Below, one piece after another: positions 128-3,171 of a DNA stretch of 62,853 nucleotides (position 1 is its first letter; each line of letters begins with the position of its first letter). The notes under the pieces are model-generated. The model was not told the DNA's origin and made no database searches. It was given only the letters and a program-made list of their open reading frames with translations. Source of the stretch: a virus; IMG/VR virus record IMGVR_UViG_3300037419_001387; one strand, given 5' to 3'. Position numbers and translations under genes: made by a program.

Positions 128-174
128 CGGAATCGCTCCTTATCGCGCGATGGGCGCAGCAGAACCTCACATGA
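1..174 (+). CDS. ruvC: RuvC-like Holliday junction resolvase, 3' end (continues 62406..62853 across the junction)
   Basis: Frame 1 reads QKWKRWYGLYGKEKTKADSLEVARQLYPACAEQLRRAKDHNRAESLLIARWAQQNLT, then TGA at 172..174. The DHN..AE..LIA end is typical of RuvC. Confidence 0.75.
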   Translation, partial: QKWKRWYGLYGKEKTKADSLEVARQLYPACAEQLRRAKDHNRAESLLIARWAQQNLT

Positions 175-821
175 ACGTCCTCATCGCTTGTGAGTATTCG
201 GGCACGGTTCGCGACGCCTTTATACGGGGGGGGCATAACGCGATGTCGTGTGACTTGCTTCCCACCGAAGTACCCGGCCCGCACTACGCGGGCGACGTTC
301 GCGACCTGCTGCACTTCCCGTGGGATCTGCTGATCGCGCATCCGCCATGCACGCACCTGTCGGTCAGCGGCGCAGCGCACTTCGATGCGAAGCGTCTGGA
401 CGGCCGACAGCAGGCAGCGGTTTCCTTCTTCATGTCGCTGGCGAAGGCGGATGTTCCGCGCATCGCGATCGAGAACCCGGTGTGCATCATGTCATCGCTG
501 TGGCGCCGGCCGGACCAGATCATCCAGCCGTACCAGTTCGGGCACGACGCGAGCAAGTCAACGTGCCTCTGGCTGAAGGGTTTGCCTCCACTGCGACCGA
601 CGAGTTTCGTCGAGCCCAGGCGCGTCGAATGGCCCGTTGGTAGCGGCGAGTTTGTCGATCGCTGGGACAACCAGACCGACAGCGGCCAGAACAAGCTACC
701 TCCCAGCGATGACCGCTGGAAGATCCGCAGCGAAACCTACACCGGCATTGCGCAAGCGATGGCCGCTCAATGGGGAACGCTGGTCGAGACGAGGCACGAA
801 CCCATGGAGCTTTTCGAATGA
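171..821 (+). CDS. DNA cytosine-5 methyltransferase-like protein (short phage orphan type)
   Basis: ATG 171 overlaps the RuvC stop (ATGA). Motifs seen: MNVLIACEYSGTVRDAF, HPPCTHLS (PC motif IV-like), IENP (ENV motif VI-like), QPYQFGH. Track ORF 6..821 carries a spurious N-terminal extension. Confidence 0.7.
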   Translation: MNVLIACEYSGTVRDAFIRGGHNAMSCDLLPTEVPGPHYAGDVRDLLHFPWDLLIAHPPCTHLSVSGAAHFDAKRLDGRQQAAVSFFMSLAKADVPRIAIENPVCIMSSLWRRPDQIIQPYQFGHDASKSTCLWLKGLPPLRPTSFVEPRRVEWPVGSGEFVDRWDNQTDSGQNKLPPSDDRWKIRSETYTGIAQAMAAQWGTLVETRHEPMELFE

Positions 822-1054
822 TCGGCTTCGACCAGATCGGAATCGCTGTGTGCGGCGTCACCGCAATCGCACTGTCGCAGTCCTCACGCGATGAAGTGCG
901 TCGATGGGCTTGTCTCTTCGGGCTTGCCGCGCAGCCGTTCTGGTTCTGGACGACTGCCACTCATGGCCAGTGGGCGATCTTCGCGCTGTCCTTCTTCTAC
1001 ACCGCTGCGTGGCTCAAGGGCGTGCGCACCTATTGGTGGAGGCCTGCACGATGA
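818..1054 (+). CDS. Small integral membrane protein, function unknown
   Basis: ATGA overlap with the upstream stop. MIGFDQIGIAVCGVTAIALS plus the hydrophobic stretches FGLAAQPFWFW and WAIFALSFFYTAAW. Confidence 0.6.
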   Translation: MIGFDQIGIAVCGVTAIALSQSSRDEVRRWACLFGLAAQPFWFWTTATHGQWAIFALSFFYTAAWLKGVRTYWWRPAR

Positions 1055-1923
1055 GCGACTTCCTCGAGCTCGCCCTCGATGGTTCGCAGCGCCTGACACC
1101 GAGGCAGATTGTCGACGCGGCGATTGCCAAGTACGACCCGGTGGCGATCTATGTCGGCTTCAGCGGTGGAAACGACTCGCGCGGTGTCGTGCACTGGATG
1201 ATGAACAACGTGCCGGGTTGCAAGCCGGTGCACTTCAACACCGGCATCGGCATCGAAGCCACGCGCGTCTTCGTGCGCGAAACATGCAAGCGGTTCGGCT
1301 GGGATCTCACCGAGATTCGCGCGCTAGAGGACTGCGGCCAAGACTACGACGTCCTCGTGCGTGAGTACGGATTCCCCGGCCCCGATGGCCATGCGCTGAT
1401 GTACCAGCGGCTGAAGGAGCGCGCCGTGTGGGAACTGATGCGCCGCGCGAAAAATGGCTGCCCGCGCAGCGCGAAAGTGATGATCGCCACTGGGATCCGG
1501 CACGACGAGAGCGCCATTCGCATGGGCTATGCGGGCCGCGAGGTGAATAAGTACCGCGCGCAGGTGTGGGCTAACCCGACGTACTGGTGGTCGAAGGCAG
1601 ATCGCGATGCGTACAACGCAACGAGCGGTATGCCGCGCAATCCGATTGCCGACCAGCTCGGAATGTCCGGTGAGTGTGGGTGCGGCGCATTCGCGCATCC
1701 TGGTGAGCTCGCGCGGTGGAGTGCGGTCGATCCGACCTTCGGCCAGCGGATCATCAAGCTGCAGCGGGAATGCCTCGATCGTGGCTACACGTGGGGCTGG
1801 GAAGGAAAGCCGCCACGTGGTGGCCACAACCCCAACCAAGGCAGCCTCCTCGACATCCCGCAGATGCCGCTTTGCGTGAACTGCGTGAAGTCAGCTGTGG
1901 TGCAGGCGGAGATTGCCGAATGA
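1051..1923 (+). CDS. PAPS reductase / PP-loop ATP-pyrophosphatase family protein (CysH/DndC/IbrA-like)
   Basis: ATGA overlap. FSGGNDS matches the SGGxDS PP-loop. The C-terminal GECGCG resembles the CysH ECGLH redox motif. 290 aa. Confidence 0.7.
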   Translation: MSDFLELALDGSQRLTPRQIVDAAIAKYDPVAIYVGFSGGNDSRGVVHWMMNNVPGCKPVHFNTGIGIEATRVFVRETCKRFGWDLTEIRALEDCGQDYDVLVREYGFPGPDGHALMYQRLKERAVWELMRRAKNGCPRSAKVMIATGIRHDESAIRMGYAGREVNKYRAQVWANPTYWWSKADRDAYNATSGMPRNPIADQLGMSGECGCGAFAHPGELARWSAVDPTFGQRIIKLQRECLDRGYTWGWEGKPPRGGHNPNQGSLLDIPQMPLCVNCVKSAVVQAEIAE

Positions 1924-2171
1924 CCCATTGCATCAAATGCCGCCGGCCGATGAAGCATCCGACCGAAAGCGGCATGGGCCCGGTGTGCGAGAAGCGCAGC
2001 CCGCCGATGCCCACCTACGAGCGCGACCTGCTGGGCTATGACATCGATCGCGCGTGCGAGGTGGCGATCGCGCGCATCGCCGTCGTTATCACGATCGTGT
2101 CGACCGAGGCGCACATCCAGACGCGCCGCGACTTCGCCGCTGCACGCCGCCGGCTGGGGGTGTGGCGATGA
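1920..2171 (+). CDS. Small zinc-ribbon protein (DUF6011-like pattern)
   Basis: ATGA overlap. CIKCRRPMKHPTESGMGPVC fits a CxxC...GxGPxC pattern. Confidence 0.55.
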   Translation: MTHCIKCRRPMKHPTESGMGPVCEKRSPPMPTYERDLLGYDIDRACEVAIARIAVVITIVSTEAHIQTRRDFAAARRRLGVWR

Positions 2172-2629
2172 TCCGCGAACAACCCTTCCTGCTGGCCAGC
2201 GGGCCTTGGGTGCGCGTGTGGGATGGCAACCCGACAGCAGCTGCGCTATACGACCGCCACTACAGCCGAAACAAAGGCGCGGTCGGCGATCCTCGAATTG
2301 CAGGTCCGGGCGAGAAGCTCGTGTATCTCACGCCTTGCGCGCGGGCGCTGTTCGTGTGGCGCCGATTCCAGTCGAAAGACCCGACCGCCGGCCCGGACGA
2401 CATCAACTGCGCGATCTTCCGCAATGAAGGTGCAGGGCTGGCCAGCGAATTGATCCTCGCGGCCGAGCCATTGGCTTACGAGCGCTGGGGTCGACAGCGC
2501 CTCTACACCTACGTCAACACGAAGCGCATTCGCAGTTCGAATCCTGGCTACTGCTTCATCAAGGCGGGCTGGCGCAAATGCGGCTTCACGAAGACGCGCG
2601 AGCTGCTGATTCTGGAGAAGCTGCCATGA
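2168..2629 (+). CDS. Conserved-looking phage protein, function unknown (an acetyltransferase-like fold is only a guess)
   Basis: ATGA overlap. Contains NCAIFRNEG...NPGYCFIKAGWRKCGFTK. Track ORF 2054.. is N-terminally extended. Confidence 0.55.
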   Translation: MIREQPFLLASGPWVRVWDGNPTAAALYDRHYSRNKGAVGDPRIAGPGEKLVYLTPCARALFVWRRFQSKDPTAGPDDINCAIFRNEGAGLASELILAAEPLAYERWGRQRLYTYVNTKRIRSSNPGYCFIKAGWRKCGFTKTRELLILEKLP

Positions 2630-3171
2630 AGGCCTCGCGCATCATGATCCGCCCGCTGATGCACCTCGCATCCATGCTCACCGATCCCGAGCGCGACGTG
2701 CTTCGCAAGGTGCTGATCGACAACATCCGCGGCGTTGATCGCGAGCACGACAAGCGCTGGCGCAGGTTCGTCGGCACCCTGATCAATTCGCAGCCCGACG
2801 AAATCACCGAGTTCATCAACCCGCGCACGCGCTCGCTGCCGTTCCACAAGCGGTGGATGGCGATCGAGCGCGCCGTGTTCGAGAACCAGGACGGTTTCGT
2901 GCACGTGCGCCGGTTTCGCGACTGGCTCAAGACGGGTGCCGGCTGGGGCAAGTACGAGCCGACCGCAACCGGGCTCGTGTTCGTGCCGGGATCCGTTTCG
3001 TTCGATGAGGCCAGCGACGACGAAATGCGCGAGTTCGTGAAGGCGGCCGAGGAGTTCCTTCACACGCCACACGCACAAAAAAAGCTGTGGCCACACCTTC
3101 CCGCGGCGCGCCGTTCCGAAATGGTCGACACGCTGCTGCGCGAATCGAATCAACACGAGGAGCACTCGTGA
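2626..3171 (+). CDS. nin-region protein, DUF1367-like (unverified)
   Basis: ATGA overlap. Contains RSLPFHKRWMAIERAVFENQ. 181 aa. Confidence 0.55.
   Translation: MKASRIMIRPLMHLASMLTDPERDVLRKVLIDNIRGVDREHDKRWRRFVGTLINSQPDEITEFINPRTRSLPFHKRWMAIERAVFENQDGFVHVRRFRDWLKTGAGWGKYEPTATGLVFVPGSVSFDEASDDEMREFVKAAEEFLHTPHAQKKLWPHLPAARRSEMVDTLLRESNQHEEHS

Follow-up and report, generated by a model that had tools for sequence, protein, structure and literature searches.

In lambdoid phages the nin region lies between the replication genes and the late regulator, and carries NinB/Orf together with a Holliday junction resolvase. NinB is a standard recombination gene of these lambdoid 'nin' regions and is not a modification enzyme. 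A comparable arrangement, in which accessory genes follow the replication genes in a rightward early operon, is found in the window analysed here, the whole 62,853-base stretch (GC 0.647) of the IMG/VR virus record IMGVR_UViG_3300037419_001387. At positions 171-3171 of this window, six consecutive genes, here termed g1 to g6, follow one another with overlapping ends. The original prediction had taken them for a functional module, marked by translational coupling through ATGA overlaps, that might modify DNA or counteract restriction. We consider it very probable that g1 to g6 are accessory genes that shuffle independently of one another within the long early operon of a temperate phage, and not a six-part DNA-modification machine.

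Precedents also exist for single genes of this set, in particular for g3, a relative of phosphoadenylyl-sulfate (PAPS) reductases. In a Vibrio crassostreae podophage, a gene from a variable early region encoding a PAPS-reductase-Dam methyltransferase fusion allowed escape from the Dnd system when it was transferred along with a single uncharacterised adjacent gene (Piel et al., bioRxiv 10.1101/2021.05.05.442762). PAPS reductases have also been noted in Aca-regulated anti-defence operons (PMC13551039).

The six genes and their relatives in other genomes

The six genes of the window are the following.

171..821, + strand: g1, 216 amino acids (aa), divergent C5-cytosine DNA methyltransferase-like protein (PHROG 757, E 1.4e-67)
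818..1054, + strand: g2, 78 aa, small membrane protein (PHROG 22312, E 8.9e-7)
1051..1923, + strand: g3, 290 aa, PP-loop / PAPS-reductase-like protein (PF01507, 28.6 bits)
1920..2171, + strand: g4, 83 aa, putative metal-binding ribbon (CxxC-x14-C / GxGPxC motif)
2168..2629, + strand: g5, 153 aa, GNAT-fold acyl-CoA N-acyltransferase-like protein (AlphaFold2 and Foldseek)
2626..3171, + strand: g6, 181 aa, alpha/beta protein, probably distantly NinB/Orf-like (PHROG 319, E 1.6e-5)

The same six genes appear in independent public gene calls on an identical metagenomic contig, L022 (100% identity over 3001 bases), and the third-position GC content of each gene is 0.73-0.87, which fits real coding sequence. 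The motifs by which the proteins had been recognised are all present, namely HPPC and IENP in g1, FSGGNDS and GECGCG in g3, and CxxC...GMGPVC in g4.

All five junctions between the six genes read ATGA, as does the junction between the preceding RuvC gene (1-174) and g1, and the coordinates, frames and junctions described earlier for these + strand genes are exact. Overlaps of 4 bp are nevertheless the default junction across the whole operon and are not specific to g1-g6. In public gene calls on the early-operon arrays of L022 and of two relatives (L117 and L118, phages of about 64 kb), they make up 14 of 23, 17 of 26 and 16 of 25 same-strand junctions, respectively (61-65%), and the overlap run of the window phage already begins one gene upstream of RuvC. 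Translational coupling is thus plausible as a property of the operon as a whole. The stoichiometric co-expression proposed for the six genes exceeds the sequence evidence. At five of the six starts (all but that of g1), a separate GGAG-like Shine-Dalgarno sequence also precedes the start codon by 8-12 nt. The wider caution is that ATGA overlaps, being the default junction in compact phage operons, are uninformative on shared function.

The distribution of the six families was examined at loci collected around relatives of g3 (21 contigs of viruses and 79 loci in bacterial or archaeal genomes), g1 (80 viral contigs), g5 (seven) and g2 (two), and long contigs with close g5 or g6 homologues (L116, L117 and L118) were also compared. 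Open reading frames (ORFs) within 6 kb on either side (4 kb at the two g2 loci) were searched with family hidden Markov models of g1, g3, g5 and g6 and with phmmer for g2 and g4. A g1 gene was present at one of the 100 g3 loci (L009), and g2, g4, g5 and g6 were present at none. The 80 g1 loci contained neither g3 nor g5, with g4 and g6 each found once; g1 occurred at one of the seven g5 loci, and no other cluster gene was detected at the two g2 loci (viral homologues L198 and L199). Co-occurrence of the six families outside this genome, which had been suggested as a check on the module, was therefore not seen.

ORF clustering within 2.5 kb of g3 at 63 dereplicated loci returned no neighbour family in more than five of them, and downstream (3') of the g3 homologues, at eight of the ten closest viral loci (those at which the g3 ORF itself had been selected), there were unrelated small ORFs only and no g4-like zinc ribbon. 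Scans of IMG/VR with g6 and g4 found no relatives.

Close relatives of the window phage carry subsets of the genes in the same slot. In the 63.5-kb relative L117, RuvC is directly followed by a g4 homologue, after which come a regulator of the GerE type, a gene of 111 aa and a g6 with 73% identity. An ATGA overlap joins RuvC to g4 there, in a junction sequence nearly identical to that of the window phage; g1, g2, g3 and g5 are missing from L117. Relative to the L117 backbone, g1-g3 and g5 look like single-gene insertions. In L118, a g5 with 80% identity follows RusA and a gene of 76 aa without the other cluster genes, and L116 has g5 alone of the six. Taken together, the comparative data argue strongly against a six-gene module: the families do not co-occur, and the ATGA coupling held to mark the module is the ordinary junction of the operon.

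In the reading that we favour, the phage would be temperate and lambdoid in style, with a genome of about 62.7 kb, and 171-3171 would be a slice of its long rightward early operon, in which a repressor and a cro-like gene are followed in turn by an N6/N4 methylase, a DUF1376 protein, RuvC, and g1-g6 with further genes. This slice would lie in a hypervariable accessory ('nin-like') part of the operon, in which genes are exchanged one at a time across compact 4-bp ATGA or GTGA junctions, and the six genes would act independently of one another. Within such an arrangement g1 would be an orphan Dcm-like C5-methyltransferase, most likely methylating phage DNA against host restriction, and g3 an autonomous ATP-using enzyme serving DNA modification or counter-defence on its own. 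Similarly, g5 would be a GNAT acyltransferase, g6 a NinB/Orf-like recombination helper, and g2 and g4 small accessory proteins. The region would then represent an 'accessory island' in which independently acting anti-restriction and DNA-modification genes accumulate.

Two further genes of the early operon place the six in context.

1..174, + strand: RuvC-type Holliday junction resolvase, 3' end (PHROG 1770, E 6.8e-12)
59058..60209, + strand: second DNA methyltransferase, N6/N4 type (PF01555, E 4.4e-28; a 383-aa gene in L022)

An identical 127-bp repeat is present at both ends of the window (1-127 and 62727-62853), from which the phage genome, about 62.7 kb long, is taken to be circularly closed or terminally redundant. 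Because the window is circularly permuted, the RuvC gene is interrupted by its ends, with the 5' part at the other end; it is found in L022 as a full gene of 164 aa. On the circular map the N6/N4 methyltransferase lies about 3.8 kb upstream of g1 in the same early operon. In L022, a divergently transcribed S24 repressor precedes a + strand array that opens with a cro-like gene and continues through the N6/N4 methyltransferase and a DUF1376 replication protein to two small genes and RuvC; g1-g6 come next, with eight or more genes after them. No sigma-70-like promoter was found in 1-6500 and no + strand terminator-like hairpin before 5833, which indicates that g1-g6 are part of a much longer transcription unit. 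The first two such hairpins after the early operon (5833-5862 and 6171-6191) flank about 650 bases without a convincing gene (5500-6150), ahead of the next + strand gene block, and may mark the early/late boundary.

The host is probably a GC-rich betaproteobacterium, as judged from the GC content of 0.65 and the best genome match of g3, in Candidimonas. Bases 1-3400 had no near-identical DNA match among 50,697 phage records, and no tRNA genes were found in the whole window. Elsewhere in the window, 32267-42766 (+ strand) is a single ORF of 3499 aa whose only Pfam match is a phosphoribosyltransferase domain (residues 2314-2395, E 2.3e-7) and which may encode a giant virion-associated or polyvalent protein. 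A protein of 806 aa encoded at 53029-55449 (- strand) has a YqaJ-like recombinase/exonuclease domain (PF09588) of 150 positions, far shorter than the protein itself.

The methyltransferase-like protein and the smaller genes

The family of g1 (PHROG 757, 'DNA methyltransferase') is very common in phages. The protein matches 977 phage records, the full-length ones annotated as DNA (cytosine) methyltransferase and distant partial ones as 'Dcm', and 4860 representatives of clusters at 50% identity. Among the relatives matched over their full length are Burkholderia phage Bcep1 gp12 and cyanophage P-SSP7 gp12 (50-63% identity); the Escherichia-phage records sampled are weaker, partial matches, and tblastn with g1 reaches phage genes annotated Dcm at E values of 1e-6 to 1e-13. 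Among 66 diverse relatives, P58 and C60 of motif IV (HPPC, residues 57-60) are invariant, as is E101 of motif VI (IENP, residues 100-103), in which N102 and P103 are nearly so. The motif I loop, ACEYSG(T), is non-canonical with respect to FxGxG, and its S10 and G11 are nearly invariant in the same set. In an hhalign comparison with a manually entered M.HhaI sequence, residues 11-69 of g1 (G11...GDV...HPPC) are in register with motifs I-IV, HPPC aligning to GFPC and G11 to the motif I glycine. A PF00145 protein of L116, compared with the g1 family in the same way, gave no informative alignment, and no further C5-methylases that could serve as alignment templates were present among the fetched loci.

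The g1 sequence matched nothing in Pfam (PF00145 included) or NCBIfam and gave only chance hits in the PDB, where its family profile found nothing either, and PF00145 is touched weakly by two of the 66 relatives (best E 0.0011). With 216 aa, g1 is without room for a canonical target-recognition domain. We accept g1, from its PHROG 757 match, its BLAST similarity to phage 'Dcm' genes and the motif I-IV register, as a predicted short and divergent C5-methyltransferase-like protein, as had been proposed; its probable role is that of an orphan methylase protecting the DNA of the phage. Although extremely frequent among phages, this short methyltransferase-like family escapes the curated C5-methylase models.

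Two of the smaller proteins appear to be accessory proteins. The three hydrophobic segments of g2 and its match to PHROG 22312 ('membrane protein') agree with the earlier description of a membrane protein, and g2 is predicted to be an accessory one. No match to g4 was obtained in any library searched, although its N-terminal C-x2-C-x14-C / GxGPxC motif is kept in the homologues of L117 (50% identical) and L069, and g4 is best described as a putative metal-binding ribbon.

The remaining pair, g5 and g6, had been left as two conserved-looking unknowns, a description that can now be made more specific. The PHROG matched by g5 (24928) is annotated as of unknown function. The AlphaFold2 model of g5 (mean predicted local distance difference test score, pLDDT, 86.4) gave 33 Foldseek matches in the PDB at E <= 1e-3, with template modelling (TM) scores up to 0.68; every one of the matches listed is a GNAT acetyltransferase. 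Following strand 79-85, the residues R85-N-E-G88-A-G90 form a motif of the RxxGxG/A type that contacts the pyrophosphate of coenzyme A, and all six are nearly invariant. Pfam matches none of the 3516 homologues of g5, and members of the family (homologues P0121-P0240) are found repeatedly in early regions among phages of about 60-70 kb, many of which carry one. Sequence searches of the PDB gave chance hits with g5 alone and nothing meaningful with its family profile, and no Pfam GNAT model was matched. The model thus suggests a GNAT-fold acyltransferase-like protein, for which an acyl-transfer activity would be expected. A relationship to Mom (PF25680) was rejected, as there was no Pfam match and hhalign of the g5 family against Mu Mom gave a probability of 0.7%.

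For g6 (pLDDT 90.5), three weak but concordant signals are available. PHROG 319 (NinB/Orf) is matched over residues 66-145 only; the best PDB match is NinB (1pc6), itself weak (E 0.15, probability 0.66, TM 0.33/0.40); and the top 20 BFVD matches, the best of which has an E value of 4.8e-4, include six NinB or recombination-annotated viral models at E 0.08-0.75. There was no Pfam NinB match. On these grounds g6 is probably a distant NinB/Orf-like recombination mediator. A late-gene antiterminator was also considered from a weak colinear profile match to Pseudomonas AlpA (7xya, E 0.034, with a shared RDWLK), and was rejected as the fold searches favour NinB. Two large families without a Pfam match can now be identified in these terms, one GNAT-fold with more than 3500 members and one NinB-like.

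The PP-loop protein and its neighbours

The assignment of g3 to the PP-loop / PAPS-reductase group is borne out by several searches. PF01507 is matched at 28.6 bits against a cut-off of 22.5 and PHROG 424 at 1.2e-21, and the family profile recovers from the PDB, at about 3e-4, both PAPS reductases (7rge and 2oq2) and the PP-loop thiolase TtuA, aligning its PP-loop to SGGKDS of the latter; a PDB search with the single sequence gave chance hits only. In 41 homologues, down to 39% identity, S38, G40 and S43 of the PP-loop (FSGGNDS, residues 37-43) are invariant and G39 nearly so. Conservation extends to G148, an ES..R motif (S154, R157) forming part of a TGxRxxES..R-type motif, W173..NP, and an ECGC motif in which E208 and C211 are invariant and C209 nearly so; C275 and C278 of a C-terminal CxxC are conserved in the homologues that extend that far. 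The intact PP-loop argues for ATP-dependent adenylation chemistry. The Cx1C presumably lies where adenylyl-sulfate (APS) reductases carry their CxxC iron-sulfur (Fe-S) ligands; considered with the C-terminal CxxC, it is suggestive of a putative metal or Fe-S centre.

The g3 family is widespread. It has 917 close homologues, and its members occur in viruses and prophages from Proteobacteria, Actinobacteria, Planctomycetes, Chloroflexi, Bacteroidota, haloarchaea and Nitrosopumilus; archaeal virus homologues are annotated as PUA-PAPS-reductase fusions. One homologue of 360 aa (P0036) has a C-terminal hydrophobic extension that Pfam assigns to PF23858 and that is unlike g2; it may be a read-through or a fusion with a downstream small membrane protein. 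The NCBIfam equivalogs score far under their cut-offs on g3 (22 bits against 154 for phosphoadenylyl-sulfate reductase, NF002537, and 12.6 against 235.3 for APS reductase, TIGR02055), so that CysH was rejected as an identity for g3, the broad PF01507 domain alone passing. In PADLOC, g3 gave weak or marginal matches to BrxP (E 3.7e-4 over 150 residues) and SspD (E 0.011) and none to DndC at E <= 0.1, while no model was matched by any of the other five proteins. The Pfam families of DndD/E, SspB/C, PglZ/BrxL/BrxC or cysteine desulfurase are absent from the called genes within 6 kb on either side, and Dnd, Ssp or BREX partners are likewise absent from the 25 most frequent neighbour families listed per batch for 62 g3 homologue loci. 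From its sequence and surroundings, g3 is predicted to be a stand-alone PP-loop enzyme that is not CysH, DndC, SspD or BrxP, and it probably works alone or with host factors.

The neighbours of g3 homologues were characterised by a Pfam scan of 233 same-strand genes (at least 100 aa, within 1.2 kb) at 62 dereplicated loci. DNA-modifying neighbours comprised N6_N4_Mtase (four), C5 DNA_methylase (three), DpdA (four), and Dam, D12 methylase, Mom and a g1-like gene (L009) once each; the others were early-region DNA-metabolism genes such as SSB, RusA, Prim-Pol, DnaB, RecT, ligase and ThyX. Some DNA-modifying gene thus stands beside g3 at roughly a quarter of the loci (a raw rate), and never the same one. 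In the viral contig L002 (1863-3243), a g3 homologue with 69% identity has its start overlapped by the gene of a Dam-type N6-adenine methyltransferase (PF05869), a pair that is the unfused counterpart of the Vibrio phage PAPS-Dam fusion.

A second recurrent neighbour is found in actinobacterial prophages and integrative elements, where a g3-family gene adjoins DpdA (PF23859, E down to 6e-100), often with a 4-bp overlap, at the following loci.

L144: 5083-7629
L147: 4592-6912
L157: 5872-7772
L158: 4081-6735
also L149, L159 and L165

In L158 the array reads DpdA, a Mom-family protein (PF25680) and the PAPS-like gene. No queC, queD or queE was found among the scanned neighbours of the DpdA-adjacent loci, and a full-text literature search returned no description of an association between DpdA and PAPS reductase. 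These adjacencies, including the DpdA-Mom-PAPS-like one, might even reflect a DNA modification pathway, deazapurine-linked or combined, that has not been described, and provide an extra lead on the g3 family.

From the family chemistry, the neighbourhood statistics and the one published precedent we infer for g3 a reaction on nucleic acid that would most likely be adenylation-dependent and probably a sulfur transfer, drawing on host sulfur donors. A DNA-modification or anti-restriction role for g3 alone is plausible on this basis. More specifically, the family may tentatively be seen as a self-sufficient nucleic-acid-modifying enzyme that uses ATP bound at the PP-loop and a Cys4 metal or Fe-S centre to place sulfur or another group on phage DNA, or that subverts phosphorothioate immunity; its recurrent placement beside varied DNA-modifying enzymes supports this possibility, which we nonetheless hold to be less probable than its converse. 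The broader suggestion that genes for DNA modification or anti-restriction are present in this region is also supported. As a stand-alone phage family with no conserved partner that often adjoins such genes, the PAPS-reductase-like proteins are a reasonable single-gene target for work on anti-restriction and DNA modification.

A smaller partnership, in which g3 would rely on a DNA methyltransferase (here g1) to be targeted to DNA in the manner of the Vibrio phage fusion, seems unlikely to us. The fusion and its anti-Dnd phenotype provide a precedent, the overlapping Dam gene of L002 and the order g1-x-g3 in L009 would fit, and some methylase is adjacent at about 9-10 of the 62 dereplicated loci. 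However, more than 80% of the g3 loci have no methylase within 1.2 kb, the adjacent methylases come from at least five unrelated families, none of the 80 g1 loci has g3, and in the window itself g2 stands between the two genes.

It is also quite unlikely that g3 acts on RNA, for example in tRNA thiolation, or on a small molecule, and so reprograms host translation or metabolism. PUA is an RNA-binding domain, so that the annotated PUA fusions of archaeal viruses would be in keeping with such a role, as would a family profile that matches the tRNA 2-thiolase TtuA as well as it does PAPS reductases (2.8e-4 against 2.6e-4). The neighbours of g3 are nevertheless genes of DNA metabolism and modification (methyltransferases, DpdA, Mom, SSB, RusA, Prim-Pol and ligase) and not RNA genes, and the sole experimental precedent concerns a DNA-based defence system.

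That all six genes form one co-expressed and co-evolved DNA hypermodification or anti-restriction module acting together is very unlikely. The genes are indeed contiguous and ATGA-linked, g1, g3 and g5 fall in superfamilies that include nucleic-acid-modifying enzymes, and the six-gene array is present on all contigs with an identical g3 protein, but those contigs are copies of the same phage. The single g1 among 100 g3 loci, the absence of g3 and g5 from 80 g1 loci, the gene subsets carried in the same slot by close relatives, the 4-bp overlap as the majority junction operon-wide and the resemblance of g6 to a recombination protein all speak against it. It is just as improbable that g3 is an auxiliary metabolic gene, a CysH-type PAPS/APS reductase boosting host sulfate assimilation, for although PF01507 is above its gathering score and the public annotation is PAPS reductase, the equivalog scores are far too low, the SGGNDS PP-loop, degenerate in genuine CysH, is intact, and the gene lies in an early accessory region among DNA-metabolism genes.

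Several points weigh against the interpretation of g1-g6 as independent accessory genes with the functions given here. What the analysis demonstrates are the gene structures, the assignments to folds and families, the missing co-occurrence and the operon-wide character of the overlaps, whereas we infer every biochemical activity and substrate of the six proteins. With its non-canonical motif I and its failure to match the C5-methylase models of Pfam and NCBIfam, g1 could be inactive or perform a different chemistry, and the NinB assignment of g6 is weak, built from several weak signals. The neighbour statistics of g3, having no matched background, are suggestive, as phage early regions are methylase-rich anyway. 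Moreover, the loci were retrieved through exact peptide or degenerate patterns, so very divergent analogues of the partners could be missed.

Comparison with described systems

Among described systems, the closest to the independent accessory genes proposed here is the lambdoid nin region. Both have a resolvase (RuvC here, RusA in L118) and, in g6, a NinB-like gene, and in both the genes are small, tightly packed and overlapping, with a content that varies between related phages. The individual genes here, in contrast, mostly belong to other families, and no Q-type antiterminator was identified.

The Vibrio phage fusion is similar to g3 in domain family. Unlike the fusion, g3 is a stand-alone protein of 290 aa, separated from g1 by g2, and g1 is of the C5 type and not the Dam type. 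With DndC, SspD and BrxP, g3 shares the superfamily, an intact PP-loop and a set of conserved cysteines, possible ligands of a metal or Fe-S centre; it differs from BrxP in its length (290 aa against the 779 positions of the PADLOC BrxP profile), and from all three systems in being without their partner genes, both in the window neighbourhood and among the listed neighbours of its homologues.

Similarly, g1 is a full-length member of the orphan Dcm-like phage methyltransferases of PHROG 757, with invariant catalytic PC and ENx residues. This short family (about 200 aa) is not recognised by PF00145 and has the atypical motif I ACEYSG, and no experimental characterisation of it was found. The GNAT superfamily shares with g5 its fold and an RxxGxG-type motif after strand 4, although g5 is unlike it in matching no Pfam GNAT model. 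Thus g1, g3 and g6 belong to known but poorly characterised phage families, and the placing of the g5 family in the GNAT fold is a new assignment. The architecture as a whole is that of a lambdoid nin-type region, and nothing in it requires a new kind of system.

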